NCBI RefSeq assembly: GCF_964355755.1
Contig: NC_092673.1
Coordinates: 10,292,001 to 10,356,000 of the forward strand
From: Antedon mediterranea
Taxonomy: Eukaryota > Animalia > Echinodermata
DNA length: 64,000 nt
Direction: 5' to 3'
Within the stretch, counting starts at the first letter, position 1; every line of letters starts with the position of its first letter. This document shows, piece by piece, positions 13,084 through 46,506 of this stretch. Made by a program: the position numbers and the translations under genes. The notes beneath the pieces are model-generated. The model saw nothing but the letters and a program-made list of their open reading frames with translations, had not been told where the DNA came from and did not search any database.

Positions 13084-13155
13084 GGTTTCGTAGTGTAGTG
13101 GTTGTCAAGTCTGCTTAACACGCAGAAGGTCCCGGTTCGAGCCCTGGCGAAACCT
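13084..13155 (+). pseudogene. tRNA-Val(AAC)-derived sequence inside HINE
   Basis: GGTTTCGTAGTGTAGTGGTTGTCAAGTCTGCTTAACACGCAGAAGGTCCCGGTTCGAGCCCTGGCGAAACC. Acceptor stem GGTTTCG/CGAAACC pairs; D and T stems imperfect. Confidence 0.75.
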
Positions 13156-13317
13156 ATTTTCTTTACTTTCTAACTGTATACGTCTGTATACAGCTTCTTT
13201 CGCTGTACCCCGAGTATTGCACATTCGTGCTTGTTATTGTTTGAAAATAAATGTTGTTTTTGAAAGTGAGATTTTTTTATGGTTTTAAATGTCAAGCCTA
13301 ACCAAGTGAACCTTTTT

Positions 13318-19009: not shown

Positions 19010-20398
19010 ATGGAGACAGTAACACAACCTAATACACGGGTTAAGCCGGTATTTGTCAAAGACGACGACATTCGGAACAAAAACGAAGATTATATAAAAG
19101 AAGAAGACATATATTTTGCTTTGACAGACGTAATCAATTGTGACAACCTAATTGGTACTCAAAAAGTGAAAAACTTATGGAGGATCTATATAAATGATCA
19201 CGGAGAAAGAGTCAAAGTAATAACTTCTGGACTCAGCATAAAAGGAAAGCAAGTGACTGTATATGACTTAAACCCATACATCAACGCAGATGAGAACTTG
19301 ATAAGAGTTTTAGTGAAAGACATACCTCTGTCAGTCAGAAATGAGGAGATAACTAACGCCTTAAAAAAATTAGGATGTAAGATTATTGGAGAGATACAAC
19401 TTATTAAATTCAGAATACAGGGAAAACTATCCCGTTTTCTGAACGGTGATCGTGCCATCTTTGTAGAGCGCTTCAAAGGAAGCTTGCCAAGATTCATTAA
19501 AGTGAATAACTTCAGTGCTAGGCTCTTTCACAAAGACCAGAAATTCGAAATTACATGTTTCGAATGCGGTCTAACTGGACATAAAATTAATGAATGCCCG
19601 AAAAAGATGGACAGTATAATATGTCACAAATGCAATATGTCAGGCCACTTTGCCAAAAACTGTAAAGGTGATAAATATGTAGGCCTACCACACAAATTAG
19701 TTATAAACTCGACAAATACATTACCAAAGCGTGCAACAAATATCACTAAGTGGATTGACAATGAGGAAGAATACCCGCACGAAGTAAAAGAAATAGAGGT
19801 AGGAATGGGAGAGGAAGTGCAAGTGGAAGTGGATATAGAAGAGGAAACATTAATGAATGTAGAAGAGGAAGAGAAAGTAGACATAGAAGAGGAAGATGAA
19901 GAAGAGGAAGAAAAGATATTAGACATCATTGAAGATGAGAATAAACAAGATGAAGCAACAAGCAACGTCATAGTAGTTCTAGAAGAACTGCTTAACAAAC
20001 CAGTTATGCCAACAAATAAGCCCGAATCTATAGAATTAGATGAAAAGGTACAGCAAATAATGAAGGAAGCCATAGACAGAGTGAAAACAATAAATCAGAA
20101 AGATAATGAAAAAATGCAACCACAAGACCAAAAGAATGAAAAGAAGAAGCAAAGAAAACGAGATAAAAAAAAAGCAAGCAATGTTGAGCAGACAAATAAA
20201 GCTGGTGAGAGAGCAAGTAGTATAAACATGGGTATGAGACCAATTACAGATTTCGCAACTACTAGCACAACGGATGCCTCTAATACCAAAGCAATAGTTG
20301 CTAGAGACCAGTTTGCATCTAGCAAAAGGAAAAAGCTTACTGAAAGTGGAGAGAAAAATGTTGAAAAGAAAGATAGAAAATCTAATTCAGTAAGTTAA
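19010..20398 (+). CDS. LINE ORF1, gag-like nucleic-acid-binding protein with two CCHC zinc knuckles
   Basis: CFECGLTGHKINEC and CHKCNMSGHFAKNC, acidic tract and basic tail. First ATG at 19010 within ORF 18950-20398. Confidence 0.88.
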   Translation: METVTQPNTRVKPVFVKDDDIRNKNEDYIKEEDIYFALTDVINCDNLIGTQKVKNLWRIYINDHGERVKVITSGLSIKGKQVTVYDLNPYINADENLIRVLVKDIPLSVRNEEITNALKKLGCKIIGEIQLIKFRIQGKLSRFLNGDRAIFVERFKGSLPRFIKVNNFSARLFHKDQKFEITCFECGLTGHKINECPKKMDSIICHKCNMSGHFAKNCKGDKYVGLPHKLVINSTNTLPKRATNITKWIDNEEEYPHEVKEIEVGMGEEVQVEVDIEEETLMNVEEEEKVDIEEEDEEEEEKILDIIEDENKQDEATSNVIVVLEELLNKPVMPTNKPESIELDEKVQQIMKEAIDRVKTINQKDNEKMQPQDQKNEKKKQRKRDKKKASNVEQTNKAGERASSINMGMRPITDFATTSTTDASNTKAIVARDQFASSKRKKLTESGEKNVEKKDRKSNSVS

Positions 20399-20487
20399 AT
20401 TACGTTGTTCTTGCTTCAACTGTAAATTTGATATAATTATTGAATTAGAAAAAACAAAAACAAAAAAAAAAACGAACAAAAATAATT

Positions 20488-23400
20488 ATGAAAAACAACA
20501 AAAAAAATGACTCCCTACATCTAATATCGCTAAATGTTAGAGGGATTAGAGAAAATTATAAGAAGAAGAAAATATTTAAATGGCTGGAAGATCAAAAATT
20601 TAATGTTGCATTCCTCCAAGAAACACACTTTGATCAGAAATCTATAAGATGTAACAATTTGTTGTGGAATGGGGCCATGTTTCATAGTTTTGGTACAACT
20701 AATAGTAGAGGTGTATCAATATTTTTTAAGCCAGGATTTGATCAAAGTGATATTGAATGTAAATATACAGACGAAGAAGGTAGAATGCTTATTCTTAAAG
20801 TAAGATATAATGAGAAGGTGTTTAATTTTATTAATGTATATGCACCTAATAATTACAAAGAAAGGGCAAACTTCTTCAAAAAATTAGAAAAAAAGATTGA
20901 ATTGATGTGTTTTAAAAAAGAAGAATATACAATAATTGGAGGTGATATGAATTGCATTTTAGAAAGAAAATTAGATCAAAAAAATAGTGTAAATCAATAC
21001 GACAAGTCACCATCTGTGTTAAAGAATTGCATGACAAAAAATAAATTAATAGATATATGGAGACAATATCACAAAACAAAAACCCAATTTACTTGGAGAC
21101 GAAAAAGCACGTACAGGAGGTTGGATCTGTGGTGCATCTCAAGTGCCCTTTATAAAAATGGTGATGTGATGTCTACCGACATTAGACCATCAATATGTTC
21201 TGATCATCAGGCTATCTCATTAAAAATATTAAATAATCAACAAAAAGCTGGTCCAGGAATATGGAAAATTAACTGTAGTATTCTTAAGGATGAAGAATAC
21301 AACATAAAAATAAAAAGAATTATTGAAAATGTAAAAAAAAATGAAAATAATCTTACTCCAGACTTGCTGTGGGAACTACTTAAAATAAAAATAAAAGAAT
21401 TTTCAGCTAAATTCTGTGCAAGAAAAAAAAAAGAGATGAATGTTAATAAGCTAAACCTAACTAAGGATTGAAGTCAATGTATTAACGAACAAGCTTAATA
21501 TCGCATACGATCAAAATATAGAAGAAAAATTAAAAAATAAAACTAATGACTTAGATAAGATTTATCATTGTGAAGCAAAAGGCGCCATAGTCAGATCAAG
21601 GGTTAAATGGTTTGAAAAGGGAGAAAAAAATAACATTTTTTTTTTAGGATTGGAGAAAAACAATGCAAAAAGAAAACATATTACCATGCTCTTAAAAAGG
21701 AATGGAAAACATACTACAGATGTTCACGAGATACTAGAGGAACAAATTAGATTCTATGAACATCTGTATTCAAATAAAATTCTAACAGAAAATGAAATAA
21801 ATAAATATTTACGAAATACTACAGTTAAAAAACTATCAGAAAAAGATAAAATAGAATGTGAGGGAATATTAACAGAAGGAGAACTAACAAAAGCAATATC
21901 TAACATGAAGTTGAATAAAAGTCCGGGTTCCGATGGACTAAGTGTCGAATTCTATCGTCATTTTTGGGAATATCTAAAAGATATTTTGTGTAATTCTTTA
22001 AATTACAGTTACAACAATAAGAGTTTAAGTAACTCACGGAGGTTAGGTGTAATAAATCTTTTATTTAAGAGTGGAAAGAGAGAGTGTCTCGAAAACTGGA
22101 GACCAATTACATTGCTAAATGTAGATTACAAAATAATGGCACATGCTCTTTCAAACAGACTAAAAAAAGTATTAGGGTCTATTATCAGTAATGATCAAAA
22201 AGGATATATTAATGAGAGATTTGGAGGAGAAAATATTAGACTAGTTGAAGATGTGTTGTCTTATACGAAAGAAAAGCAAATACCAGGAGCCATGATTTTT
22301 CTTGACTTTGCTAAGGCATTCGACTCAATAGATAGAAAGCTAATGTTAAATGTTCTAAGAAAGTTTGGTTTTGGTTTATCTTTTGTACATTGGATAAATG
22401 TAATATACACAGGCACTAGATGTATGGTTAAAAATAACGGATGGGTTTCAAACAGTTTTAATATGGAATGTGGAGTACGTCAAGGTTGCCCGTTGTCTGC
22501 ACTATTATTTACAGTTGTAGTCGAGGTAATGGCAATAAATATAAGGAATAATCCATTGTGTAAGGGAATTGAATTACCTGAGAATAAAAATATTGATAAT
22601 ATGGTGAAAATAGCTCAGCTCGCTGATGACACTGTGATTTTTACATCAGGTGAAAATAGTTTAAAATATTTTTTCACTGAAATCAATGCATTTTGTAATA
22701 TTTCAGGGTTGAAGCTAAATAAAGGAAAATGTAAAGGAATCTGGATTGGATCAATTCAGAATAACCTAGCAACCCCTTGTGGTATCACTTGGACGAAAGA
22801 GCCAGTGAAATTCCTCGGAATTTATGTAGGCTATAAAAAAGGTGTTTGTGAAAAAAAAAACTGGGATGATAAAATTATGGAGTTAGAACATACTTTAAGG
22901 CTATGGGAAAAACGACACCTTACCTTCTTTGGAAAAATGATAATAATTAAAAGTCTAGCAATTTCAAAATTAATATACAATGCTAGTATTATCAATGTAC
23001 CAAAACATGTATTTCCAATGGTAGAGAAGTTACTGTATAGATTCCTATGGGGAAATAAAAAAGAAAAGATTAAGAGGAAAACACTTATAAATAAAATAGA
23101 AGAAGGAGGGGTTAATATGATTGATTTTTATGTAGTTGTGAACTCGTTAAAGCTAAACTGGGTTAAGAGACTACTTAGCCCAGACCCAGGCAAGTGGAAA
23201 TGTATTCCAAAATATTACATGTACCCTATAGAATGTACATTAGAGATAAGTAGGCTTAATTTTGAAGAGCATAAACAATTACAAATTATGCCTGAATTTT
23301 ATTTAAATATGATTAATGCAATTGTGAAAATAAATAATATTGAAATGTTAGATCCTCAAAATGTACAGGAAATTAAATCTCAAACCTTGTGGGAAAATAA

Positions 23401-24286
23401 ACATATACTGTCAGACGGAAAGTCTTTATACTTCAAAGATTGGTTAAAGTCGGGCTATAAAACAATTGGTGACATTTTGGTCAATAACACAATTGTAAGT
23501 CTTAGAGATTTAATTCCCACGTTATTAGTAAAGCATAATGGGATAATAGAATACTTCAAGCTCATGAATGCTATTCCTATTGAATGGAAGGAAGTATTGG
23601 CACGACATAGATTAGAGAAAGAACGAGTTAATGTTGATATTAAAAATGAATTATTCAAATCAAATGTTAAAACAGGTTTTTATGATAAGTTTATATTTGA
23701 ACTAAAGACAGTGCCAATCTCCCAAGTAAAATGGGAAGCAGAGTTTTTAAATAAGACTATGGTATGGAACAAAATATGGAATAACAAAGTCAAAGATATG
23801 AAACATATGGTAAAAGTTGCGCAATTCAATTTTAAACTTTTACATCGCATACTTGTTTGTAATAAAAGATTACATATTTGGAAATTGTCTAAAACTAATA
23901 TTTGCGATAGATGTAAGAATGTGATAGAAAACGAAGAACATATGTTACTTAAGTGTAAAGTGATTAAGCCAGTTTGGAGGAAATTCAATAATCTTATTGT
24001 TGAATGTTTTCCCAATGAAACGCCAATACATTGGTTTGATATAGTTACTGGTTCCAAAGATAAACTTGTAAATGAGCTAACATCTATCTTTACGTTTTGT
24101 ATATACAAATCCCGCATAAGGCTTAGTTTATTAGATAACATGATGGGTAACGAATCAAAAAGTATCTTGAATATGTTTAAGTTTGAATTAAAAAATCTTA
24201 TAGAAAATGAATACGCATGTAATCAGTATAAAGCAGTTATAAAATGGAATGATGTTAAAATTAAATTATTAGAATTCATAAAATAA
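20488..24286 (+). pseudogene. LINE ORF2 (APE endonuclease, reverse transcriptase, C-terminal zinc finger) with one frameshift near 21465
   Basis: SLNVRG, LQETH, NVYAP, GGDMN and SDH (APE); KSPGSDG, WRPITLLN, LDFAKAFD, GVRQGCPLS and LADD (RT); CDRC...EHMLLKC. The downstream frame continues through AKGAIVRSRVKWFEKGEK. Confidence 0.92.
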
Positions 24287-25363
24287 GAAAAATATAAAAC
24301 TAGTACAAGCTGTAGTGTAAAACTAACACCTAGACTTATACTAAAACTAATACATGATAGAAATAAATGTATTAGGGTAAAACATAGACTGAAACACACG
24401 GTCAAGCATATAAGTAAACAAACTGGTAAATGTAAAGGGCCAACATAGTAAGAAAAGAACTTTAAAGGAATAGAAATAGTGGAATGAAACAAATGTTATA
24501 CAAGGCCAAAACATAAAAAGTAGCATATAATGTGTTTATAATAACTATATTAAACTGATTCGTAAATGTAAATAGGTATATTAATGTGTGTATGTGTGTA
24601 TATAATTATTTGTAACGGATGTAATATAAGGTCAAAAGAAATAAAGAAACAAATTGTGAGTACTGATTTAAGATATAATAAAAGAAACAGCTACTTTTTA
24701 ATACATTTCTTAATATAAAGTAAATTTAAATGATAAATAGTTGTACTTTTACTATAACTTGCAATAAACATAAAATGTACGTTTTTAAAGCATACTTTTA
24801 CTCCATCGATTTTATGTACATGTATAGATATAGTGCCTTTTTAGCTGTTATATTGCATTTTATTGTTCTTTATTTTATAAAAATGTATGTATGTTATGTA
24901 ATATATATTTGTAAAAGGAATGAATAAATGTGGGTGACCCCCACGAAAGAGAAAAAAAAAAAAAAAACAATGTTATTATATTTTACAGGCAAAATAAACT
25001 TAAAATATACAACGGCAATGAGATATGGCTGAAGTTTGGCGGAGATCATGGTGGTGAGAGTTTTAAGGCAGAAATCCAAATTGTAAGTGTTGCTGATCCG
25101 AATGCAGTCAGAAATATGGTTGTAGTATTGATGTTCCATGCAAAGGACAGCGTCTATAACTTGTCGCAAACATTACCAAGAGTGACGGAGCAAGTTATGG
25201 GACTGAATGGTCTACAGTGGAGGTAGTTATGTTGTTTCATTTATCATGGATAAAATGCTATGTATATCAACAGAGTAACAAATACACTTATCTTTATCTA
25301 TAAATGTGGATTTTTTTTTCTTTCACAGAGAGTATAATCTGCGAATGTTTTGTTTTGGTGACT

Positions 25364-25849
25364 GTTGTTGCTGTTGCTAACGTTTTCCGTCTTCCGACAT
25401 TACGCTTTCCACAATTTGTTTCCATTTTTTTCTGTTTATGGCAGGATGGTTTGTTATTGTGTTAGTGTCTACTAGTCCTTGTAAGTCTTTCTTTATTTGA
25501 TTCATCCAGTTATTTCTTGGTCTTCCTACGGATCGTTTTACTTTCCTGTTAGTTTCCTTCATTATTTGTTTGATTGGGGTATCATCCGGTAATCTAATTA
25601 TGTGTCCATACCATTTTAATCTCCTTCGTTTAATTCTTTTACTCCATTCTTCTTGTTTTGTTATCTCGTATATTTTCGTGTTACACACTCTATCTGTTAA
25701 TTTAATATCTATCATCTTTCGCAACATTTTCCTGTGATATATATCTATACTCTCTTGTAATTTTTTGTTTAGTACCCAGAGTTCACTGTTATATAAGAAA
25801 ATACTTGCTATGTATGCGTCAAACAAACGGGATTTCACGTCTATAGACA
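25364..25849 (-). mobile_element. 5'-truncated RTE-type LINE fragment
   Basis: 12-bp TSD GTTTTGGTGACT (25352-25363 and 25850-25861). ORF with RLKWYGHIIR...GRPRNNW typical of RTE ORF2 C-termini, and a short (CAA)-type tail. Absent from copy 2 (~42915-42926). Confidence 0.85.
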
Positions 25850-28672
25850 GTTTTGGTGACTATGATTTTCTAACCAAAATCTACGAAATCAATGGACCAA
25901 ACTGTAAGTAGTAAAAAAACATAATATAAAAAAACAATACATGTTTTTCTAACAAACAAAAAATAGAATGTGAAATAATATTAACAGTAAATTATATTTG
26001 TTTTAGGCCGGTATTGTTGCCTATTTTGTAAAAAATCCAAAGAGGAACAGCAAACAAAGTCTATTAATGAAGAGTGTAGGACACTGAGGTCATTGGCTGA
26101 AAACTTAAAGGCATTTGAGGAACATGGAGGGAAACAGGAAATGTCCAAGAATGTATCACTTAGTGTAATATGGGAGCCTATGATTGATATTGAAATTGAG
26201 CAAGTAAGTAATTTTTATCTTGTACTCTAAATACCAAGTAAATAATCTTAAATGTCGTAAGTATTTTTTTATAATTATCTTTACAGGTGTCCGTCCCTAC
26301 CCTCCATATCTCTTTAGGGATATTCAAAAAACTGTATGAGATGCTGGAAAGCGAATGGATGTTGCTATATTGATGGAAAGAAAAAATCATACAGAAGAAG
26401 ATGATTATGATGATGATCAAGCAAAATCAAAGTTTGATAAGTTAGTGAAGGCAGTGGCTATGAAGCAAGAAGGTATAATTTATTTATTCTCTCCTTTCGT
26501 TTTTATTTGTTGTCTTTCCTTGCTTTTTATATTTGTTTTGTCTTCTTTGTATTGTATATGGCAGAAAATTCAATAAATAAATAAAAATAAATTAAATTGT
26601 TTTTAATTCCAGAATTGGCAAGAGAAAAAGATCAACTTTTACTACAAATTGAGAAAATAGAAGACGATATCCCTTTATTGTATTTAAAAAATCAAAGTGG
26701 GGATGCTAAGGCAAAAATGTCTAAACAATTGCATGAACTAGTAAAGCTTCAAGATGAGTTGACAGAAACAGTACGTCAATATTTCATTCATAATTATATT
26801 GTTTGTTTTTACTTGTTACTTACCCTAAAAATCGATGCCTTAGAACCTCACATGGTTATTCTGTACCTATGAAAGCAAACATAATTACCTGCATAAGTAT
26901 TTTTCTATAGGAAAGGCAAATGGACGTACAACTGAAGTTTGGGACTGGTCCAATAGTAGCATCTATGGACCAGACACTCCAGTATCATGGTATTAAACGA
27001 CAGCCATTTCATGGGAAATCTTTTAATGGTAATCATGTGCACAAGGCACTAAAGGTATGCACATTAACTGTATGTAGAATTATGTATTTTAATTCTAATA
27101 CATAATAGTAGTAGGCCTCTTTATATACATGATCCTTATTTACATTACTACTACTATTACAATACTGTATTATAATTTTTTTTAAATAAAAGTCTGACGT
27201 CATAGATGATCTATGCAAGAACATTTCTAGAGTGGTCAGTATAGAGGCAGATCTCTTTTCAATTAGTAAGGGACAACTGATAATGGCGAAGGCAGCAGAG
27301 ATTGAAGTAAAATACACAAACTTACTCTCTAAATATTCAGCAGTACACAACAGTATCAACCATTGCCGGGTGTTAACAACCGATGACATTCAATCAATTG
27401 GTATGATTTTTCTTTATTTCAAACCACTATAGATGTATCAACTAGATTTGTTTACAAGTTGTAAAATTTTGGAACAAGAACAAAAGTAATCAATTATATT
27501 TAAAATAATTTGCGTTTATATTTATACAGATGAAAAAATAATGGCTTTTATGGACCACTTTCGCCAATACAATGAGAGAATATCACCTAAGCTCCATTTA
27601 CTTGAGGATCATGTGCTGCCATCAATTAAGAAGTGGGGAGTTGGGTTAGGACTGCTAGGAGAGCAGGGAGGAGAGTCCATACATGCCTCAATAAACAGAA
27701 GGAAACGGTCATTTTGGGGTATGCGTAATGAAAATTCAAGAACGACGTCTATTATGAAAGCGCATACCATGTCCACAGTCCCTGAAATATTCAAGGAGGT
27801 CGAACACCCAAAAAGCCGAAAGCAGCTGAAATTTAAATAAAATAGAAGGCAAAAATTAGTGAAAATCTCAGATAAAAACAGTAACCTTATTATATTGTCT
27901 ATACTATATTAATAATATACCTACTACATAATTGTCTAACTAGGCTAGGCCTGGAGGTCTATTATCTTAGTTAGTAGGCTATAATAATTGTAATAATATG
28001 GTTTATGACTAAAAGGCCTATCTATAACATGTTTTTATTATTATTGCATAAAAATTACAATAATAACATTATGTTAATATTTATACAAAGTCTCTTTATT
28101 GATCTTGAACTCCGTATTTACATTGCTGCTGGATTTGCCCTATGTTTAGGCCTAGACATGTGATATAGAGTGCTAGGCCGAAATACTAACCACGTGGATT
28201 ATATACCAATTTTGAGCTTCATTAAAAAAAAAATGGGACATAACACCAGCGTGATTTTTTTTCTAACAAATATAAATAGTATATAGTTATTATATTTGTT
28301 TGCATTTACTTCTTAAAAAATTAGGTTTTGATTTTATATGCGTGCAAAATTACACAAAAAAACCATCCTCAAAAACTGTTAAATATCTAAAAACTTACTC
28401 TCGAAATCGTTGGTTTACTAGACTGTCTTAAAATGGCCGTTTCGTTTAAAAGAGATCGTCACATGGTTCTACCATACCTTATCTTCAACTAAATATGAAT
28501 TATTCATGAGAAAAACAATTTGAAGGCTTCTCATTCGTTGATTAAAGATTACGGAAATAATGTTTTGAAAAAAACATCACTTCCGGTTACTATGCACGCT
28601 TCGCTGAGCAGATATTGAAGGTAGCAACCTATAGAGGGCGCATAACTTTTTTTTCCTGGTGAATTGAATGTG

Positions 28673-29377
28673 TTGTCGGCAGCTGGTGGAACTGAGAGGC
28701 GGCATGACGGAACAGGAGGCGACGTTCTGGTACACGTACATCAACTCGGATCCGAGGATCTGCAAAGCTCTCTCCTCGAAGCCGTCCGATCCCGTTTCCT
28801 TGTTGGATCGGTTCCGGACGTGCTCGGCGAACGGTTCACGAACCGGCTGAGGAACAACCTGAACCCGATTCCGGAGAAGAGAAAGTTTTACGTCGATGAC
28901 GTCGTCTACAAAGTCGATCAGAGGACCAGAGTCGAGTCGTTTGACAGTTTGGCGGTGGTGTTTTCCACTAAAAACCTTGTTCACTTACTCTACAGAGAAG
29001 AGGGCATCGTGGTGGGAGACTTGAAGGTTCGACGGTTACAGAACGAAAAAGGACAAGCGGCGAAAACCGCCTTCGTCGATCACGTGGAGCTCATGGTCGA
29101 CGCTCCCGATCTGCCGATGTCGTTCCTCACATCGGCGCTCGATCTGCTGTCGTTATTCGCAGAAACGGTCGTGTTTGCCACGTACAACGACCGGGAACGT
29201 CAGTCTCTGACCTCCATGTTTTTGGAACATCAACGCACCTCCAACGGAGACGTGCTGGTGAAGGTAGACAACAGCATCCGTAGGATCCAGGTTCTGAAAA
29301 AAGGTGTGAAAAACCACCCCGATTGCAACAGACGGCGAGGAAAAATACGATCCGTGCCATCTTTCAGGAAGTGTTAA
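28673..29377 (+). pseudogene. Orphan virus-like ORF, 5' end cut by the Chapaev terminus, probably frameshifted near 28845
   Basis: ORFs 28668-28850 and 28664-29377 overlap in different frames. No motif recognised. Confidence 0.45.
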
Positions 29378-29441
29378 AACCGGAGGTGCACCCGATTTCG
29401 CCCATACACTCGCCCCGGAAAGTAAAGGGCCCAGAACAATC

Positions 29442-30208
29442 ATGACGTACACAACCGTTCAATCCAGTTGCAACAGAGCGTCGATGAACTTCTTCCTGGT
29501 GAACGTGGTGTCTTCGCAAAACATCGCGTATCGATATCCGTACGACACGCGCGAGACGGCGCAATCCATCCACATGAGGGGCACGAAATTGCAAGACGAC
29601 ATGATAGAATTTCAATCGCCTCTGAAAAGAGGATCGACCGCGCTGTATTTCGTTTCCACAGGATCGACGAACATCACGACGAGGGGTAACTTCAACGTGA
29701 GAACGAAAACTTCGCTCAACTACCAACTGCAACAGGCGATAACTTGGAGAAAATACAAGAGCGTACCTATGCACATTTCGACAAACAACCTGAACCATGC
29801 AGGTAGGATGTACGGCGTGCTGGACGATCCGTCTGACGTAGTCGAACGACTTAAGCTTTTGGAATCTTTGACGGTCGACCGCAACGATCTGTTTCCGTCG
29901 GTCAAGTTCACCATCCCGTACCATGTGGACGGACGAGCGAGAAAGTTCCAGTTGTTTTCTCCTTCGCTTTGCTGCAACACTCAGTTTCAGACGGTCGCTT
30001 CTCTCAAGCAAACCGGTCGCACGTTCCTCGACATGATATTAAGGCACGTCGACAAATTCGATTCAGAACTGTCCCGAAAGTGCATTGCAGAGGAGCTGGA
30101 GGTGGCGAACCGTTAAACGATCGAACACTGCTGGAAATAAGTCCGTCGAACCGTCCGATCTGCTGCAAAAGGTCCGGTTGCAAACGCAAACGGTACGTCA
30201 CAAAGTGA
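29442..30208 (+). CDS. Divergent TATA-binding-protein-like protein (copy 1; C-terminal frameshift ~30100)
   Basis: Two TBP-like repeats: LVNVVSSQNI ~ LQNIVSTVNL, STALYFVSTG ~ TTALIFSSG, NDLFPSVKFTI ~ PELFPGLIYRM, KFQLFSPSLCCNT ~ VLLIFVSGKVVLT. Spacing and ~190-aa core length fit. Confidence 0.62.
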
Positions 30209-30671
30209 AAAACTTTTTGTTTTTTTTGTTTTTTCTGATTCTCCCGATGAGTTCTTACCTGTAAAAAACATTAAGATCAAGTATTTGGACTTTAGAAACT
30301 CTTCTTTGTACATGAGAAGACGACTGATCAAGGCATTTCAGAACTTTCAGAACGTTGGAAATGTTGCTGAACCTGTCGAGGTCGTGGACGAAGAAGAGTC
30401 CGAAGAGAAAAAAAAAAGAAGAAAGATTGTTTTACAAGTAATAACGGACTAAGGAATCATGCCAAAAATGCTGGCGATTCTTTCCCGACGGAGAAAAACG
30501 ACTCGAAATAGACAGGGGCAAAAAAAAAACCATTTTAGAAAACCAACTATAACTGATTAAATAGTAACATTTTACAGTATATTAATACAGAAATAGACTT
30601 GGAAGAAAAGAATAATATTTACAAAATTCAAAGAAAAGGAGAAAAGAAAGGGGAAAAAAAACAACACAAGA

Positions 30672-30894
30672 ATGAGCACAAACATATACATCGAAATGCC
30701 GGTCTTCCACGTGGAAAGGGTTCTGAAAGTGCTACGCCTTAAAAAAAGCAACACAGTGGCAACGACGGCGATGCGGATGAAAAAAACAAAAAAGACTTAT
30801 GCGAAGTGATCGACAAAATAGAGAGATTGATAGATTGCAAAGCAGAAAGTGAAAATACTTTATCTTCTAAATTTAAGAAAATGATGGTCGTTTG
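30672..30894 (+). pseudogene. Possible small orphan ORF (~74 aa) frameshifted in an A-run
   Basis: MSTNIYIEMPVFHVERVLKVLRLKK joins a downstream open frame (..DLCEVIDKIERLIDC..) if the A7 run is changed in length. Flanked by AT-rich spacers. Confidence 0.3.
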
Positions 30895-30995
30895 AAATAA
30901 AAGGAAATTGAAATTTATATACATATATGTGTTTTTTATTTATTTTTTTTTTTTTTTTTTTGTTGTTGTTGTTATGTTTCACAAGAATCTTTCTT

Positions 30996-32176
30996 ATGGA
31001 CTTGTTCAAAGAGAGACCGGTGTTGAAGTTGGGATTGCCTCAACCTGCCGTGCAGGTCAGGTGGTCAAAGATAATGACAGTCGACCCTAGACATTTCAAG
31101 TCGGACGACTACGACGACTACGACGACGACGGTGGCGGTGACGAGGGCAACGATTACGGAAGGCGTTATCTGACCGGTCGTCTCTGGTTGACTAGAATCG
31201 AAGATTACACAAACTACACGACGTTTTCCCGAACTCTACAGTCTCTGGACGATTGGAGCGTGTTTGTGAGAAGCGGCAACCCCTCTCCAACGTTCCAGTG
31301 GTACTTCGACGGAAGCCGTTACGGATCCGACAACCCTTACTTCGAGCTTCTGATTAGAATTGAGGCATCTGTGTCTGTCGTACAACAGATCGCTACCGTT
31401 GTGTCCGAAGAACGTCGCTTGCGCAGTCGAAACCTGCCTCGACAATTTGGCCGAGACGGAAGGTGGCGTAGGCAGAAGCGGCGTGCATTTGGGCCCGCCT
31501 CCGATGTTCGTCAGGCACGACAGACGACAGATCGGATGGCTTAACGCAGACTTCTTCTCTGCCCTTTTAACCATGGAAACCTCGCAACGACTGATGGTAG
31601 GTCTGGCCGATAGATCTTCCCGTCTTGTTTTCGAAGGATCGCAAACGACGGAAAGCATCCTGAATTTCGAGTTGGCGGAAGTGGAATTCTTCGAATTCGT
31701 CGAGGACGTCGTGGAAGAAGCAACGAACCCGAGACTGGTGGGCGTACGGAAAATATTTCAATTCCGTCTCGGCCAAATTCGTCCGTCCTCTGAGGCTACT
31801 CACCGAGGTCAAAGAAAGACACACCGCTTTCATGACGGACTCGGACGTGTTCCTGCCAAGCGTTTGGAAACGGTTGAGAGCGACCGGGACCACGTTGCCT
31901 TCTTGCATAACCGAATCGACCGTGTTGCACGAAACGGACAGGAAATGCAAGGAAAAGGTGATTTCGCTTTTTCTAGGAGAACACCTAGAGCCTGTCGAAG
32001 ACGATCTCGCCGTAGACGAAAACAAGATAAGAAGGGAGAGGTCGAAACGATGCATGAACGATGAGATCGACGAACGACCACCCAAATCTCTCGATTCGCC
32101 GTTTGTTTCAGGGAATCTACTGCTCGGCGTAAAAGATCTGGACGTGACCATGATTTGCGGATGCGCAATACTTTGA
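30996..32176 (+). pseudogene. Orphan virus-like gene (~390 aa) split by two frameshifts
   Basis: Overlapping ORFs 30927-31544, 31360-32064 and 31832-32176 tile one GC-rich segment bounded by AT spacers. Contains a (GACGACTAC)n DDY repeat. Confidence 0.5.
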
Positions 32177-34408
32177 CAAATTGACAAACAAAAGAATACA
32201 AGAAAAATTGTTAAACAATATTTTTGGTTTTTGTGTTTTTATTTCCTTCAACCATTTCTTTATTTCTTTTCTTTCAAAAGTAGACTTAAAACTATTTTTT
32301 ATTTATTTTTTATTTCTTGATTATTTTACGCTTCATCTTTTGCTGTGTAGTTCCATGCCTTTCCGCAGAATCGGTGTGCGTCGCAACCCAAAGCGTTTGT
32401 ACATCTTACGATGAATAATCTCCTCTCCCCGTTTTCGAGATCTACGCTTCGAAAGACCGGTTCGTTTTTTTCTAACCTGTCGCTCTTCTTCGGCGGTCGA
32501 CACCTTCACCGTGGAACAGCAACTGCCACTGAACACATTCCACCCTCCGCAGAGCTGCAGCTCCTTCCGGGGCAGTTGCGTCGGAATCTTTTCCAAAGTA
32601 TCTTTGATCTCCTTCAACCGATGCAATATGCTCGTTCGGCAGTCCCCTGCTTCCGCGTTCTAAACGATTACGCTCAAAACGTTGCTTTTGTCGAGTTCGC
32701 AAAATTGTTTCAGCTCTCGGATCAAGTGCTCAACTTCCACGGTCGGATGGATGCACGAATGCAACAGCGGATGATAGGAAACGCCTCCGTGTTTCAGGTG
32801 GTAAGGCGTCTGTCTGTAGCATCCGAGGGCGGCGCAACTCTTTTTGAATCTGTGAGAGTTCGTCTCGTTTTTGCCCTTTCGAACAACGTCCCGGACCTCG
32901 ATCGCTTCGTCGTCCTTCAGTTCGTTGACGACTCGACAAAATTCTTTTACGCAACGGTCGGCCGCCGTATTGCTATCTCCGATCCTCAGGGCTATGTCGA
33001 TCATGTTCTGTTCCCGTCGAGACGCGAATCTTTCGACGCCGGGCCTCGTCATCTCTGTGGTGCTCACCCTCCCGTCTGCATGGAGACACGCATACCTTTT
33101 CTTCTTGTCCGTCAGCAGCAAGCCGCAAAGCGTCTCCCTGTGTTTGAACCTTTGAAAGCTTCCTTCGCCCAAGACTCGGGCGAATTGCTCTTCCAGCTCC
33201 TGTCTCCCGCCTGGAACTATGTCCAAAAACAACGAGTCGGTGTCGCCGTACAGCACCCGAGCACCGTTTTCTTCGGCGCAATTTTTTAGCGCATTCAGTT
33301 GTTCCCTGCACTTTTCCGTCACGTGGTTGTAAAGGCTTTTCTTGCCAGACGTGCACAGACATCCGACGCTTGTTTGTACACGGCGGAGTTCTGGGGAGTG
33401 ATGTTTTTTTCTTCTCTAGCCGACACCAGTCTTTTCATGACGGACGGAAGCAGACCTTCGCGTACTTCGGCGTCGACGAAAGAGCCGTCTTCGAGAGCCG
33501 TCGACTCGTCCACGTTTTTGTCGATGATGAACCTCGGATAGCAAGACTGAAAGTCGTACAAGTCGACGTCTCTGTGAATGCCGGACACGGTGTCCAGCAC
33601 CAGGCCTCCTCTGCACGTTTCGTCTTCGTTGACGCTTCCTTTGGGCTTCGGGTCCGCATTGCTCCTCGGAAACACCACACGCTGACGCTGCGCTTCTCTG
33701 CACAGCACCGACGAAAGGACACCGGTCGACGATCCGTTGGGGAACCTTCCCACTATTCTGGACAAGTTCGTCTCGATTTCAACCAATTTTTTGGCTTCCA
33801 CCTCCGACACGTAGCGTTCCAGCACGCAAACGTCGTCGTCTAGCTTCTTCGCCGACAAGCTCGCCGCTAGCTCGTGACAAGATTCGTAACCGACGTAATC
33901 GTAGACGGAGTCGTTGTCGCCGCCCGCCGGCGACCGTACGTGTTTTGAAGTGTCCAAGCACACGGGGAACCCGTCTACGGCAAGGGGTACCTCGCACACC
34001 CGACATCTGGCGACGATGCTGTCCTTGACCCGACCACCGTGATACACGAACACGTCGGCAGATTCGATCGACTTTGCGATTTCCGACAGCGTGTCGATCT
34101 CCGCATTTTCGCCGTGCAGTCTCTTTCCGTCGGACAGCATCGCCGAAATTATTCGACCGTTCACGTCCCACCTGAGAACTACGCACAACACCGACAGTCG
34201 CACCGGGTGAACGTTCTGTCGTTCCAAGTGGATCTGCTCGTCGTACGTCAAGCCTTCGACGTTGCCGTCTTTGTCTTCGGAGTAACTGTGCCAAGCGCAT
34301 CCGTGAACCCCGACCGCGCACTGAGCGTCCAGGTCGCCCACGGACGAGGGGAGGTTGCCGAAGAGGTTGTCTACCTTGATGCCGTTCCTTTCGTCGGTCG
34401 TGAGCCTC

Positions 34409-37400
34409 CACACTCGATTCACCAGGGACAAAAAGTAGTGAGCCCTCTATCGGCAGCCAATCGTTTTTGCACACGAGACAGCGTGGACAATTACCCGGAA
34501 GCAACTTTGTTTTGAAAAGTAAATCTTAGGTTTTTGCAAACTGGCCAATTGGAACTTTTGGTTTTATTTACTAATGAATAATTCATGAAAACCTTTGACA
34601 AGGCATCTACGAACCACGTGATATTGTTTTTTAATCGACGAACCCATTATATTTGTGTGAAACAAGGGTGAATTACACCGATGTTTTTTAAACAATTTTA
34701 GGCCTATTCGAATGTTAAAATTTCGTCTAATTTGTTGAGGCTGTAATAAAATAACGCAATTTTTTGAGAAGGTAGGTTTTATAGTTTCTGAATATTTGAT
34801 TTTTCAATAGTAGTTAATAAAAAAATCTCGTTGGGGTTATTTTTTATTTTTTTTTTTAATGGCTGCTTAAACATGTGCCTTCTTGGGTATTTCACTATTG
34901 AAAATGGAACACATGGTTGTAGCTAAAATCATTTTTTACGCCATAAGATAAAAAATGTGGTTTTGTAAATTAATAAGGGCAACATATAATATATAGGAAA
35001 GCTGTTTTTAATCATAAAACTCTACAAAGCCTCTTTTTTTTATTTATAAATCAATATAGTCTAGGCCTAGTAGTAGTACAGTAGGAGAGCCAGGCTTTAG
35101 CCTATAGTGGGGTAGTGCGTGCATTTTTGGCGCGTGTTCATTGTCGGGCGCGCGTTGTTTATAGGCCTAAGAAAATAAGTAAAATATACAAATATAATTA
35201 AATAATGATTATTATTAATTGAATGTTGTTTTTTTTTACAGACCACAGAGGATTGTTCTACATACATCAATAGAAATAGCATTAAATCAACAACAATTTC
35301 TTATGAGTCATATTAATTTACCTCTGGCATATAATGTGAAAAAGCACTATTAATACTGTAATAGTGGATATCTATAGATGTATTGCCAAAAAGACATTTT
35401 ATTTTTTAAAAACTTTAACTTATCCTAATTTACTTATTTAAAGGTTCAAGTGGCGGTTGGTTGTTGTGCAGTAGTTTAATAAAGTTTAAATGTACATTTC
35501 AAATCGGCAAATAAATAATTTTAATAGGCCTACAGTACTACAGTAAAGAAAATCTTTTCGAAGATTAGGCTTAGTACAAAAGATGTTAGCTAAGTTGATG
35601 TAGAAAACTTGTCTGATTTTTAAGGTGAAATTTGTGATAATATTAAAAGTTAAAATGTTAATTGGTGTGTATTTGTATTTCATTTATTGCTCCATTATTA
35701 TAATAAAAAGCAGGGAACCATGAAATTTCATTTTAGCTCCGATAAAAAGTAAACATTTTCAGCATATACTGTACTTAAATTAATCATATGTTAGTGACAG
35801 GTGACATTAACAGATTTATTATGAGATTACTAGTAAGCCAACTAGTAGGTTTAGCTCTATTCATAAAAATAATGACATTATATACTGTACATTAATTAAT
35901 TAGCCTAGCTAGGCCTAACTAATTTACTGATTTTTCAGTTTTACCAAGACAACCGTTCAGGCATGCAGACAGTCCTCACTTCACACTAATCTTCATAATT
36001 TTAAGAAAAATGGAAGTTCAGCACTTTATTTTAAAATTTATAAGCCCATATTATAAGATTCTGCATCATCCACTTAACAAGAACTAAAATCGAGAGCCCA
36101 GTGATAGAGCGCATCTTCCGACGTTCTCGTCGCCTAAGGAAACGAGTATTCCAGCCCTGCCGCGTCTTCCTAGGCCTACGCGCACCGCACTTTCGCTCAA
36201 AATACACTATCTTCAACTCCTTATAGAATTTGTTTGAAAAATAACCCCAAGCTTATATTTGGAAATCTTTGAAAATGCATATAAGACTATATTATAGCGT
36301 TTTCAGAATTTCATTTAAAAATTGCAAATTAATGTTAGCTATTTTAACAGATTAGTTAGTTTTCACTTTTTTGTTTTCGCCGTATGACTCGCTTTGTTTA
36401 CGTTTACATTTGGCTTAGACGTTTATCTTAGAATTCGAATCAATTAATCCATAATCAACTCAGTGGGAAAGCCACTTCGCGTTTTGACCGTTAAATCGTG
36501 TAAAATCGACTTACTTCCGCATTGACGATTTTGAAGCGCCACCTATCGTTGAAAACTGAAACCACGATTTTTCGTCGCCTAGCAAATAAGTGCTGTTTTA
36601 TTTTAAGCTCTCATGAATATTTAAGAACCGCCCAACATTACTTATTATGGTAAAAGCATTTCCTAATAAGTATAATTGAATAACCAATCGGTTTCCTTCA
36701 AAGAAACCGAAGCTAATACAATACATTCGGCGACTGAAGTCGGGACTCGTGAAATTTATAAATGTGGTACGATTTGACTACTGTTTTGTTGTCCATTTTC
36801 TGAATAGTCGGAGGTGCATCCCAACAAATTAAAACAATTATAATCAATTGTTTTATCAAGAATAATATTAGTTTAATCGAGTATGATATATTTCTATCCT
36901 GTTCAAAATTTGTTGGTGTATTCTCAGGCCTCGAAAGGTAGGTACATTTTCTAGCTGTGAGCGTGGTTTCGGCAACGCGAGACACGTGTGTCAGTATAGG
37001 CGATAGCGAGACGTGTGTTGTACTGTGTTGATGCTGATCCGATAGTCGTTAAGTTGTACTGATTACGAGTATCATTGGTCCTGGCCGGCCTAGCCTGGTG
37101 ATCTGATCCCCCCCAAAAAATACTTTTTTTCAATCAGTATTAATATTATTATTTTATTTTTCATTTATTATTTGATTTATTAGGCTCAATAGGTGCCTAG
37201 CTAGGCTACTAGTAGGCCTAGATTATTATAAATAATAATAGCAAATACTGTAATATTAATTAATAAAATACAGCTTCCATTTGACATTAACAATTTTTTT
37301 AAATAATATTTATTATATTTCTGACACTTTCAGGAATCGTTGATGATGCAGAGTTCTTTGTCTTTGTGACTTCAAACTGAGAGTGAACTGGATAAAAAGA

Positions 37401-38839
37401 TGACACCGGTACCTACCGACATTGTCATACCCAAACTATAATTTAATTATTTAAAACAAAATATTGAATTACAAATATATGTATGTTGCAGAGGATTTAG
37501 ATGAATTACAATACAAATATTTATGTTTTACCTACTACACTATACTCTGTAAATTATGTTATTGTCATGTGGTAGACCTTAAAAATTGAATATTTATTGT
37601 ATGTTAGGCCTATTTTATATTTTATTAATACTGTATTAGTTTAATATTACTATTAATTTATATTATAGAGTAGGCCTACTAGTTTGTACATGTTTTTACC
37701 CAAAAAAAATGAATAAATAATTTGTTATTCAATCTAATTGCTTGTTTGTTCATCAATAACAAAACAATTGTAAGCAAGTATATAACAGTTCTTGTTAGCC
37801 GGTTATTTCAGGTCATATTATTAATATTAGCTAGGCCCGACGCGCCCGATCACAACGTCACTAAGTGACTTTCCGCCCCTGGAACAATCGCTCGCTAATA
37901 GGGCTAGGCCTCGGACTCGTATAAAAGCTATTATAATAGTTATGATAAATATTCCTCAACTAAAATGTATACTGTGATAAATAAACAAGTAATAATATAC
38001 GTTGTATTGGAATGTATTTATTTATATGAATTCTTATACGCGGACAATTATAAACATCGCTTATATCGTTCGCTATAAATAAATTCATAAACACGATGAC
38101 GATGTGTTTACAAAATGGCGGTTTCGCTAGTTTTCGATGGAACAAATAGTGGTACCTTTAGTTTGAATAGTCGGAGCTGCATCCCAACCACCGAATTTTG
38201 TATCTTAATATCGTATTCTGTAGATTATTAATTTTTCTAACAGGGATTTTAAATTCAGGACTGTTCAATTTTTCTAAATATTTTATTTTAACGATTTTCT
38301 AGGGTACAATTTCGGAAAAAAGACATTGGTTGATTTTGCCGTTAAATTACAGATTATCGTTTTGTTCAAATACATTTAATTTTACACGACAATATATTAA
38401 AACCATTTATGAATTTATTTCACTAACAATATTTTTCCGATAATCAGCTAAATTTACAAATATTGTGTTTTTCCAACACCCTAAAATTTAGCAATTTTGA
38501 ACTAAATTAGAAAAGTAGGGCGCCCTCTCCGAGTCGAAATTTGACACGATTTGTCGACTGGCTGTCCCACTGAACTAAAATTGCTATTGTTGTGGTTTTT
38601 GTTTAATATAAATGTTCTTAATAAACAGAAATAAATCAAACAACAATATAATTTAATATAATTCCGTTAAAAGGGAAATTTAGACAGCCTATAAAACAGG
38701 GAAGTCAGAACTCGCGTCGCTCGCAATGCTCGGGAACTTTCTATTTATAGCCAATCGAAAAAAGCTCCGGCTAACTTAAACAATGAAAACGGCTCTCGGA
38801 ACACTTAATGTCCCATTTTCGCTGTTTGACGTGGATGTG
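34409..38839. mobile_element. Non-autonomous Chapaev-like DNA transposon (4431 bp) inserted in the polymerase gene
   Basis: CACA...TGTG termini and 4-bp TSD CCTC (34405-34408 and 38840-38843). Empty site GTGAGCCTCCTGTAC in copy 2 (~51455-51469). AT-rich interior with no convincing ORF. Confidence 0.85.
36461..38572. mobile_element. Nested non-autonomous TIR element (2112 bp), superfamily unassigned
   Basis: TIRs CAGTGGGAAAGCCA / TGGCTGTCCCACTG (13 of 14 match), shared subterminal AAATCGTGT..TCGACT, and 4-bp TSD AACT on both sides. Confidence 0.75.
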
Positions 38840-39889
38840 CCTCCTGTACTTCTTGGCGCAAGAAATTGGATCGTCACCTCTGCGCATGATGCATTCTCCG
38901 TCCATTTCGTCTTCGACGTACGACGTGAATTTCACTTTCCTCGTCTTTAACGACAGCCTGTTTCCCTCCGGATCTCTGCCGTAGAGGTACAACTTTCCGT
39001 TTATATTGGAATACTTGACACGTGTCAGATACACGAACATTGCCTTTTGATCGGACAAAATTCCGAAGTCTGGAACTTCGACAGACTGTTTTTTCTTTTT
39101 GTATTTCTTTTTCTCCAAAGTCGATGCGAGTTCGTGTTGACCGGTTGCTTTTAGAGACTCGACGAAAGCTTTGTAACCGGACTCGTCTTGATGCTTCCAA
39201 ACGTTGTTGAGGAAAAAGTAAACGTTTCTCTCTCTGTCACCGTCGAGGAGGAAATTTGCGTATTCGGGTTCGTAAATTCTTCTGACGACCATTTGTTTGA
39301 CGGTGGCCTCCAGATTTATCGTTTCAGCGAACCGGTTGATGCGTTTCAGAAGAACGTTCCTCTCTCGCAATCGTTTCTTGTATGTTTGATCGATTTCGTA
39401 GTGCGAAAGACGGACCATCGCCGACTTGAAGGAAGAAAAAGGATGATCTTTCTCGAACGGCGTGTTCAAAGTTGTTTTCGCTCCTTTTCTCAAAGCGGCA
39501 ACAAGATCGTGGTGGCCGGCGCATTTAAGAGAATCCACGAAAGCTCCGTGAGCGTGCAATTTCGGATACCTTCGAATGTCGTCGATGAGATAATACGCCA
39601 TTCGATTCTCTTTAACCCCTTTCTCTCTGTCCATACACAGTACAAAGTTCTCGAAATCCCGCGAGTATATTTCTCTGACGACCAATGCTTCGAGTACCGC
39701 CGACAGGATCATGGACGTGGCGAGGAGTTTGCGATGTTTCGTCAGCAACGGTTCGCCTTCAAAGTAACTTTCTTCCATTCCTTCAGCACAGAGGAGACAA
39801 GGTTATGTCGATGTTGAAAGCCACGAATGAAAATAAAGAAAATTATATATTATATACCAAAACATGATAAAAAAAAATTATAATATGTC

Positions 39890-42208
39890 AGATATTTTGA
39901 GGGTTGTAAATGTCAGGCCTAAACAAGTGGACCTTTTTTAAAATCAGAAAAAAAGTTGCATGGCATTATTTTTCATTGATTGATCATTCATTTCATATAT
40001 ATAGACTATTATCAGCTCCTCAGTCATCTACTGGTTTGTGGCGTAACGGGTAATGCGCAGGTTTTAGTGATTTCAATAGTGGGTTCGAACTTCTAGGGAT
40101 ATTTTTTTTCTTTTTTTTTTTATTTGAAAATAAATATTGTTTTTGAAAGTGAGATATTTTTATGGTTTTAAATGTCAAGCCTAACCAAGTGGAAATTTTT
40201 TTAAATCAGAAACAAAGTTGCATAACATCATTTTACATTGATAGATCATTCATTTCATATAAATAGACTATTATCAGCTCTTCACTCATCTACTGCTTTG
40301 TGGCGTAACCGGTAATGCTCAGGTTTGAGTTCTCTCAGTAGTGGGTTCGAACCTCTAGGAATATTTTTTTCTTTTTTTTTTTGTTTGAAAATAAATATTG
40401 TTTTTGAAAGTGAGATATTTTTATGGTTTTAAATGTCAAACCTAACCAAGTGCACCTTTTTTTAACTCAGAAACAAAGTTGCATGGCATTATTTTTCATT
40501 GATTGATCATTCATTTCATATAAATAGACTATTATCAGCTCTTCACTCATCTACTGGTTTGTGGCGTAACGGATAATGCTCAGGTTTGAGTGTTCTCAGT
40601 AGTGGGTTCGAACCTCTAGGGATTTTTTTTTTTTAAATTGAAAATAAATATTTTTTTTGAAAGTGAGATATTTTGAGGGTTGTAAATATCAGACCTAAAC
40701 AAGTGGACCTTTTTTAAAATCAGAAACAAAGTTGCATGGCATTATTTTTCATTGATTGATCATTCATTTCATATAAATAGAGTATTATCAGCTCTTCAGT
40801 CATCTACTGGTTTGTGGCGTAACGGGTAATACTCAAGTTTGAGTGCTCTCACTAGTGGGTTCGAACCTCTACGGATATTTTGTTTCTTTTTTTTTTGTTT
40901 TAATTTAAAATAAATATTGTTTTTAAAAGTGAGATATTTTGAGGGTTGTAAATGTCAAGCCAAACCAAGTGGACCTTTTTTTAAATCAGAAACAAAGTTG
41001 CATAACATCATTTTACATTGATGGATCATTCATTTCATATAAATAGACTATTATCAGCTCTTCACTCATCTACTGGTTTGTGGCGTAACCGGTAGTGCTC
41101 AGGTTTGAGTTCTCGCAGTAGTGGGTTCGAACCTCTACGAATATTTTTTTTCTTTCTTTTTTTTTAATTGAAAATAAATATTGTTTTTGAAAGTGAGATA
41201 TTTTTATGGTTTTAAATGTCAAGCCTAACCAAGTGGACCTTTTTTTACATCAGAAACAAAGTTGCCTAACATAATTTTACATTGATGGATCATTTATTCC
41301 ATATAAATAGACTATTATCAGCTCTTCACTCATCTACTGGTTTGTGGCGTAACCGGTAGTGCTCAGGTTTGAGTTCTCGCAGTAGTGGGTTCGAACCTCT
41401 ACGAATATTTTTTTTTTTTTTTGTTTGAAAATAAATATTGTTTTTGAAAGTGAGATATTTTGAGGGTTGCAACTGTCAGGCCTAAACAAGTGAACATTTT
41501 TTGAAAACAGAAACAAAGTTGCATGGCATTATTTTTCATTGATTGATCATCCATTTCATATAAATAGACTATTATCAGCTCTTCAGTCATATACTGGTTT
41601 GCGGCGTAACGGGTAATGCTCAGGTTTGAGTGATTTCAATAGTGGGTTCGAACTTCTAGGGATATTTTTTTTCTTTTTTTTTTTATTTGAAAATAAATAT
41701 TGTTTTTGAAAGTGAGATATTTTTATGGTTTTAAATGTCAAGCCTAACCAAGTGGACCTTTTTTAAAATCAGAAACAAAGTTGCATAACATCATTTTACA
41801 TTGATGGATCATTCATTCCATATAATAGACTATTATCAGCTCTTCACTTATCTACTGGTTTGTGGTGTAACCGGTAGTGCTCAGGTTTGAGTTCTCGCAG
41901 TAGTGGGTTCGAACCTCTACGAATATTTTTTTTCTTTCCTTTTTTTTAATTGAAAATAAATATTGTTTTTGAAAGTGAGATATTTTGAGTGTTGTAAATG
42001 TCAGGCCTAAACAAGTGGACCTTTTTTAAAATCAGAAACAAAGTTGCATGGCATTATTTTTCATTGATTGATCATTCATTTCATATAAATAGACTATTTT
42101 CAGCCCTTCACTCATCTGCTGGTTTGTGGCGTAACGGATAATGCTCAGGTTTGAGTGCTCTCAGTAGTGGGTTCGAACCTCTAGGGATTTTTTTTTTTAA
42201 ATTGAAAA
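39890..42208 (+). repeat. ~260-bp tRNA-derived satellite, spacer of about 9 monomers between the two composite copies
   Basis: Same monomer. The first part matches 52510-54200 and the last part matches 17600-18290 in diagnostic variants. Confidence 0.95.
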
Positions 42209-45200: not shown

Positions 45201-45737
45201 TGCCCTATGTTTAGGCCTAGACATGTGATATAGAGTGCTAGGCCGAAATACTAACCACGTGGATTATATACCAATTTTCAGCTTCATTAAAAAAAAAATG
45301 GGACATAACACCAGCGTGATTTTTTTTCTAACAAATATAAATAGTATATAGTTATTATATTTGTTTGCATTTACTTCTTAAAAAATTAGGTTTTGATTTT
45401 ATATGCGTGCAAAATTACACAAAAAAACGATCCTCAAAAACTGTTAAATATCTAAAAACTTACTCTCGAAATCATTGGTTTACTAGACTGTCTTAAAATG
45501 GCCGTTTCGTTTAAAAGAGATCGTCACATGGTTCTACCATACCTTATCTTCAACTAAATATGAATTATTCATGAGAAAAACAATTTGAAGGCTTCTCATT
45601 CGTTGATTAAAGATTACGGAAATAATGTTTTGAAAAACACATCACTTCCGGTTACTATGCACGCTTCGCTGAGCAGATATTGAAGGTAGCAACCGATAGA
45701 GGGCGCATAACTTTTTTTTCCTGGTGAATTGAATGTG
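42209..45737 (+). mobile_element. Chapaev-type transposon, right half, copy 2 (no nested insertions)
   Basis: Near-identical to copy 1 once the insertions are removed. Terminus ...GAATTGAATGTG at 45737. Confidence 0.7.
42265..44905 (+). pseudogene. Spliced Chapaev-type DDE transposase, copy 2 (5'-truncated; TGG>TAG at ~44699)
   Basis: Same exons and motifs as copy 1. The last exon reads AAGAAGTAG where copy 1 reads AAGAAGTGG. Confidence 0.75.
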
Positions 45738-46442: not shown

Positions 46443-46506
46443 AACCGGAGGTGCGCCCGATTTCGCCCATACACTCGCCCCGGAAAGTAAAGGGCCCGGA
46501 ACAATC

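Follow-up and report, generated by a model that had tools for sequence, protein, structure and literature searches.

The window (the whole 64,000-nucleotide stretch of Antedon mediterranea DNA analyzed here) has an overall GC content of ~31% and resembles animal DNA. Within it lies a putative viral island (copy 1, 28673–34409, unstranded) in which long frames are tightly packed, with a GC content of 0.493 and a CpG o/e of 1.42, against 0.31 and 0.58–0.60 in two flanking stretches; a third flank (34600–38700) has the same GC content of 0.31 but a CpG o/e of 1.18. We set the left island junction, 28673, from contigs of other sequencing runs, which continue in different sequence. A second island copy (45738–52440, unstranded) includes the start of the polymerase gene, its left end being placed by offset from copy 1. 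Host-like DNA and island together form an 8.56-kb segmental duplication unit (25850–34409, +; second copy at 42915–51464, 98.5% identical) that lies among arrays of a 261-bp repeat.

Each island copy carries a gene with a predicted TBP fold. In copy 1 the gene starts with an ATG and runs as an open frame of 224 codons (29442–30116, +), which takes in the whole predicted saddle (residues 12–205) and the first helix of a C-terminal extension and contains the motifs NVVSS, STALYFVSTG, NNLN, DLFPSVKF, and QLFSP. Because this frame is uninterrupted, no intron is required, and the island also holds a family-B DNA polymerase; the original prediction of an intronless gene beside a polymerase was correct on both points. 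Compared with copy 2, copy 1 has a frame break of one base near 30100, which leaves its Cys/basic tail out of frame, running in another frame to 30208 (30100–30208, +). Copy 2 (46507–47274, +) has an in-frame stop at 46810–46812, and the part downstream of it continues into the Cys/basic tail. A natural unbroken relative, P0002 (258 aa, 70% identical to copy 1), has a C-terminal end closely resembling this tail, in a comparison made with copy 2, and since an intact relative ends alike we regard the tail as a genuine part of the gene. The frames and the P0002 end thus agree with the earlier description of an open core in copy 1 and a Cys/basic C terminus supplied by copy 2. With a frame break in one copy and a stop in the other, both copies in the window are damaged, which makes a present function unlikely; the gene here is most likely a decaying fossil, probably endogenised. 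Neither TATA nor TATT occurs in the 241 bases upstream of the copy 1 gene.

The polymerase gene lies on the other strand. Copy 1 (32411–34409, −) comprises at least two frames and matches PF00136 over the cut-off in both pieces (E 1.5e-7 and 5.1e-7); its 5′ part, at ~38836–39778 (−), lies beyond a 4.4-kb AT-rich insertion (34410–38835) that divides the gene in copy 1 only. Copy 2 (49536–52398, −) comprises three frames with a CARD-like N-terminal region, and a natural relative of the polymerase, P0003, is 48% identical. The polymerase frame opens with ~250 residues that seem to form two similar helical repeats (51500–52398 (−) and 38836–39778 (−)); the match of this region to CARD_2 is weak and under the cut-off (E 0.003–0.009), PDB sequence searches gave no confirmation of it, and P0003 begins downstream of it. 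It would be unusual for a viral polymerase to carry a fused death-fold domain. The other island frames are unassigned: an upstream frame (28646–29377, +) is cut at the left junction and has no family match, and the downstream frames (30927–32176, +) are broken differently in the two copies and have no significant match. In the frames scanned, from the window and from loci of relatives (below), NCBIfam and PHROGs named only the polymerase and the helicase, and Pfam, NCBIfam, and PHROGs identified no HK97 major capsid, triplex, portal, or protease gene, all of these stretches being fragments; the window itself, with an island of 6–7 kb, has no identified terminase gene either.

Several mobile or repeated elements surround the island. 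Adjoining its left junction, a 42-base stretch (28631–28672) has very high contig depth in run X7 and looks as if the end of a mobile element had cut the upstream viral gene. A spliced DUF1280 gene (PF06918, E 4.6e-13; 24924–27840 (+), second copy 42475–44905) was duplicated along with the island; a short high-copy element interrupts its copy 1 at ~25377–25859, and its last exon holds what we take to resemble a DDE transposase motif. No terminal inverted repeats were found around this gene and no clear ones around the 4.4-kb insertion, for which reason we do not claim a Teratorn-like transposon fusion. The 261-bp repeat, whose unit reads like a degenerate tRNA gene, forms arrays at 1–18279, 39890–42197, and 52510–59060; five tRNA-Val(AAC) genes lie at 12800–14228, and a near-intact LINE-type retrotransposon with zinc-knuckle, endonuclease, and reverse transcriptase frames lies at 19010–24286 (+).

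All or part of the stretch is contained in 12 public sequencing runs under four organism codes, 4 of the runs containing at least half of its words; no RNA run was among those listed, which has no bearing on expression. Run contigs were compared with the window for 7 of the 12, and X10 gave no contig for the stretch. Single contigs of runs X5, X7, and X8 span the TBP-fold gene at ~2% difference, and because they differ left of 28673 the junction is not common to all samples. In runs X7, X8, and X12 we observed a second version of the gene, ~82% alike at 29490–29620, suggesting that more than one related virus lineage has been present in these hosts. Among the rows listed, 7 of 13 transition places common to X7 and X8 fall in a CpG-decay context (background ~0.25), a small count that gives a hint, and only a hint, of CpG decay in the window's copy.

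Predicted fold and DNA-facing residues

Using phmmer against 1.84 billion representatives, we found 13 related proteins at E ≤ 0.001, 5 of them at E ≤ 1e-30, and a profile search retrieved 23 family members among 2,952 candidates. No Pfam domain and no informative name is attached to any family member found, and no relative appeared in IMG/VR, phage records, or a first metagenome scan. Full-length members have 236–422 aa; in a tree of 38 rows, built with no outgroup and returned with long-branch warnings, the window protein groups with short forms (~240–260 aa) in a starred clade of seven, apart from forms of mostly 350–420 aa. Members of the window's own clade lie on contigs of 144 kb (P0016), 60 kb (P0006), and 36 kb (P0004). 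The core of the protein is basic (25 K+R vs 15 D+E), and the first helix of the C-terminal extension carries an invariant Cys and an invariant Glu.

An AlphaFold2 model of the window protein, made without templates from 13 rows, reached a pLDDT of 82.3 and a pTM of 0.75, with four of five models above 80; residues 38–46, in the stirrup region of the first repeat, are under pLDDT 50. The predicted model recovers, in order, two tandem alpha/beta repeats in one saddle of ~180 residues. The original prediction had proposed comparing such a model with the TBP saddle; TBP was retrieved in two structure searches, Foldseek and VIA. Searched with VIA against 48,161 chains, the model matched five at Z ≥ 8, all of them TBP, the best at Z 13.5 (rmsd 3.9, 170 aligned, model residues 12–205 on yeast TBP 60–240) against 6.3 for the next fold. 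With Foldseek, 39 TBP or TBP-containing PDB rows (best E 6.4e-8) come ahead of any clearly unrelated fold, one of them an entry whose whole title is "double stranded DNA binding protein" and which we take to be a TBP; among the matches listed, identity to solved TBP chains is 12–16%. A 359-aa relative from another locus (L003, below) was modeled at pLDDT 84.5 and gave VIA Z 10.0 to TBP vs 6.6 for the next fold, in a search that barely probed the C-terminal extension of the long forms; this model and that of the window protein are only partly independent, since some alignment rows are common to both. Given the 13 relatives and the confident TBP-fold model, the feature is beyond chance, and on the strength of the models the window protein almost certainly has a TBP fold. 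It is scarcely credible that the fold is an artefact of prediction: the alignments are shallow (13 and 38 rows) and come without profile-level support, but confidence is high without templates, both repeats appear in order and with a wide margin over other folds, and the motifs in both halves are spaced as in TBP.

At the level of sequence, the relationship is beyond the reach of the searches we ran. PF00352, which does match archaeal TBPs as a control, matched neither the window protein nor P0002 nor any of 12 relatives; PDB sequence searches with one protein and two profiles gave no TBP match; and two proteins queried in the ESM Atlas gave no route to TBP. An hhalign comparison with 13 euryarchaeal TBPs, run with a reversed control, gave a probability of 0.8% and E 0.07 with only the Asn motif aligned. 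The two TBP-like half-repeats first read from the letters therefore hold in the predicted structure and not in sequence, where comparing the halves of the protein detected no internal repeat.

TBP contacts DNA through a face made of Asn, Thr, and two pairs of Phe. We mapped the family onto Halobacterium TBP by hand, using motif spacing and strand order. Among 36 rows, N21 (35/36), F70, T79, N116, F151, and P152 (36/36 each), F/Y172 (36/36), and T180 (33/36) correspond in this mapping to N12, F59, T67, N103, F135, P136, F152, and T160, so both Asn, both Thr, and three Phe/Tyr of the DNA face match. The mapped Asn, Phe, and Thr positions serve in TBP for minor-groove contact and DNA kinking. The likely fourth Phe position, in a poorly modeled loop, is Leu in the window protein and Phe in 26 of 36 rows. 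Cellular TBP and TRF (PF00352) share with the family the two-repeat saddle, aligned end to end, and apparently the Asn, Phe, and Thr residues that face the DNA; what sets the family apart is an additional strand at the N terminus, a longer loop in the first repeat, and a conserved helix at the C terminus.

The gene had been judged too diverged to be a host TBP or TRF, and the 12–16% identity among the listed TBP chains and the lack of any PF00352 match agree. A TRF-like host paralogue, retroposed or domesticated beside viral DNA, might be considered because the gene sits in a cellular genome and in runs of several organism codes. We hold this to be very improbable, however, given that low identity to cellular TBPs, a GC and CpG signature identical to that of the polymerase island, the damage to both copies, and the gene-dense viral neighborhoods of the relatives. 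The viral origin proposed at the outset is instead something we hold with high confidence, based on the island signature (GC 0.49 vs 0.31, CpG o/e 1.42 vs ~0.6 in two of three flanks), the adjoining family-B polymerase, and a relative that lies near a herpes-type terminase.

Relatives and virus lineage

In BFVD, the window model found Ranid herpesvirus 2 (RaHV-2) ORF75 (Q14W31) as its best match (E 3.3e-9, TMq 0.67, 18% identity, 229 columns), followed by unnamed entries and giant-virus TBPs (E 1.7e-7 to 8e-7) and, lower, by herpesvirus U58, UL87-type, and BcRF1 proteins (E 1.2e-4 to 1.3e-3). For the L003 member, ORF75 was again top (E 1.0e-13, 444 columns of the 440-aa target), and the next match was a gammaherpesvirus UL87-type protein at E 3.4e-6 (beta/gammaherpesvirus viral TBPs, 3.4e-6 to 1.7e-5). 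Several high rows are unnamed, and WSSV and mirusvirus TBPs are absent among the named ones. ORF75, from a virus of the Alloherpesviridae, resembles the family in the TBP core and the C-terminal extension, and does so over its whole length with the 359-aa relative, but it has 440 aa vs ~240–260 aa in the window's clade, identity is 15–18%, and its BFVD name gives no function. Judging by the modeled structures, ORF75 is a putative orthologue of this family.

Four loci encoding relatives, L001–L004, bear on the lineage. In L003, a match to the herpes terminase C terminus (PF02499, E 1.6e-5, 24.6 bits, cut-off 22.8) lies 7.5 kb from the TBP-like gene; the herpes-like segment runs from 8759 to 20659 of that locus, with the terminase gene apparently split into exons, and PDB sequence searches gave no confirmation of the terminase pieces. 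L003 also encodes a PIF1-like helicase, a spastin/Vps4-like AAA ATPase adjoining the TBP-like gene, and two RING proteins; the SalHV-1 helicase likewise matches PIF1 best, according to passages of its annotation (PMC13030845). The AAA ATPase stands beside the TBP-like gene in L002 too, and on reading, L002 and L004 have the same local gene order as L003. The terminase is found in one of the four loci, and the L003 relative, at only 27–29% identity to the window protein, belongs to a different clade of the tree. The closest locus, L001 (42–43% identical), contains a kinase and a metalloprotease and no hallmark gene; at 5328–8292 of that locus, the TBP-like gene overlaps the end of the protein kinase gene and faces the gene for the zinc metalloprotease, which looks secreted. 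None of the neighbors of the window gene matches L001–L004. We rejected a candidate for shared gene order with L001, a weak tblastx trace between a downstream frame and the L001 end, as it was unsupported by tblastn.

The virus behind the gene probably belonged to a herpes-like lineage. What links the family to herpes-like viruses is one match in structure (ORF75) and one neighborhood (L003), so for the window element itself the herpes label is indirect. The gene might derive from another group of large DNA viruses, such as mirusviruses, nucleocytoviruses, or a nimavirus-like group, with the ORF75 match reflecting a shared fold or gene transfer. TBP is carried by 59% of mirusvirus genomes and by WSSV as well, according to passages of PMC10132985 and PMC4506587, respectively; giant-virus and unnamed entries come close behind ORF75 for the window model; and neither a capsid nor a terminase gene was identified in the window, whose polymerase is assigned to family B. 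We consider such an origin unlikely, however, because for the longer relative from L003 ORF75 leads by seven orders of magnitude over its whole length, because that relative lies near the PF02499 terminase, and because the WSSV TBP has 891 aa (in the cited part of PMC4506587) vs 236–422 aa in full-length family members. Nucleocytovirus TBPs are likewise divergent virus-encoded TBP folds but stand below ORF75 in the BFVD lists, and mirusvirus and nimavirus TBPs, which have a divergent virus-encoded TBP fold in common with the family, are not identifiable among the named BFVD rows. The original reading as a viral TBP therefore stands, whereas its examples, giant viruses and WSSV, give way to the Herpesvirales, to which both the top match in structure and the single informative neighborhood point. 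The protein family also serves as a marker for large DNA viruses of animals, an unsampled group that sequence profiles miss.

Proposed role and ancestry

Our preferred reading, to which we give a probability of roughly 0.6, is that the gene came from a likely herpes-like DNA virus, is now damaged and likely endogenised, and codes for a protein with a predicted TBP saddle that would bind viral promoters. Taken by itself, a promoter-binding role is probable by analogy with known TBPs. In an active virus, the protein would take the place of host TBP at TA-rich viral promoters, its conserved Asn, Phe, and Thr lining the DNA face and kinking the DNA as in TBP, and would so help to bring in the RNA polymerase II machinery of the host. 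Its targets may be late promoters, by analogy with UL87/BcRF1/ORF24, and it could thereby serve as the virus's own transcription-initiation factor, as originally suggested. Among herpesviruses, descriptions of TBP mimics come from the beta and gamma subfamilies; there, in the passages cited, the mimics replace host TBP at TATT late promoters and drive late transcription (PMC7498053, PMC4893493, PMC12197705).

Proteins of this known class (UL87, BcRF1, ORF24, U58) have the TBP saddle in common with the family, are ~10–16% identical to host TBP, and were matched in both BFVD searches, but those listed have 577–1005 aa including an N-terminal domain for which the window family has no counterpart. 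As passages of PMC7498053 describe it, the N-terminal RLLLG domain of UL87/BcRF1/ORF24 binds the Pol II CTD, and the family acts in a six-protein complex on TATT promoters. RLLLG occurs in 0 of 38 rows of our family, and in the 37 rows counted 17–58 residues (median 23) precede the first Asn; without the motif and the N-terminal domain, the family falls outside UL87/BcRF1/ORF24 as defined. As modeled, then, the gene likely encodes a minimal TBP from a herpes-like virus, without the Pol II-binding domain at the N terminus. Since there is no room for such a domain, recruitment would need another route, which might go through further proteins of the virus, TFIIB-type factors of the host, or the C-terminal helical extension. 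The five other partners of the late pre-initiation complex had no Pfam match in the scanned frames of the window, L001, and L003, all of which are fragments.

These same features could describe a herpes-like TBP-fold decoy that soaks up the partners of host TBP (TFIIB, TAFs, NC2, Mot1) and binds no promoter: a Pol II-binding N terminus is missing, the first stirrup is poorly modeled with one Phe replaced, and no pre-initiation complex partner was identified in the window or the loci. Such a role is nonetheless improbable in our view, because in the hand mapping the invariant positions lie on the DNA-facing strands and not on the outer surface, and a decoy would not need them.

Herpes-like DNA integrated in animal genomes has precedents (PMC5822658, PMC12373286, bioRxiv 2025.04.19.649669), including, in passages of the latter two, elements of invertebrates and lancelets. 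The island resembles these elements in kind but is a damaged fragment of 6–7 kb, and the passages cited mention no TBP. TBPs encoded by viruses have been recorded in WSSV (PMC4506587) and mirusviruses (PMC10132985, PMC12768974), in the portions cited. In our literature search, no TBP was reported for allo-, malaco-, or invertebrate herpesviruses, though the original frog herpesvirus genome paper, a 2023 survey of invertebrate herpesviruses, and supplements could note the gene. The terms "TATA" and "TBP" are absent from the main text of the SalHV-1 structural annotation (PMC13030845), an OsHV-1 transcriptome paper (PMC11565193), and a Herpesvirales review (PMC12096621), and "TATA" is absent from Viro3D (PMC12583693), a further frog herpesvirus genome paper (PMC12638877), and a Teratorn survey (PMC5822658).

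Going by the modeled structures, ORF75 and this family likely represent a factor for promoter binding, so far unrecognised, in herpes-like viruses other than the mammalian groups. More speculatively, and with the odds against it, a viral TBP may be ancestral to all Herpesvirales: this family and ORF75 would then be true orthologues of UL87/BcRF1/ORF24 from before the Pol II-binding domain, handed down by a mirusvirus-like ancestor, with loss in alphaherpesviruses. If that were true, viruses would have directed promoter recognition long before the mammalian late-transcription complex arose. With its structural counterpart in a frog alloherpesvirus, this family of compact TBP-fold proteins from herpes-like elements, whose hosts are likely invertebrates, suggests a function for the unannotated ORF75 and gives biochemistry a viral TBP of minimal size. 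It also makes testable whether the viral TBP is older than the split of the herpesvirus families and whether it is linked to the TBPs of mirusviruses.
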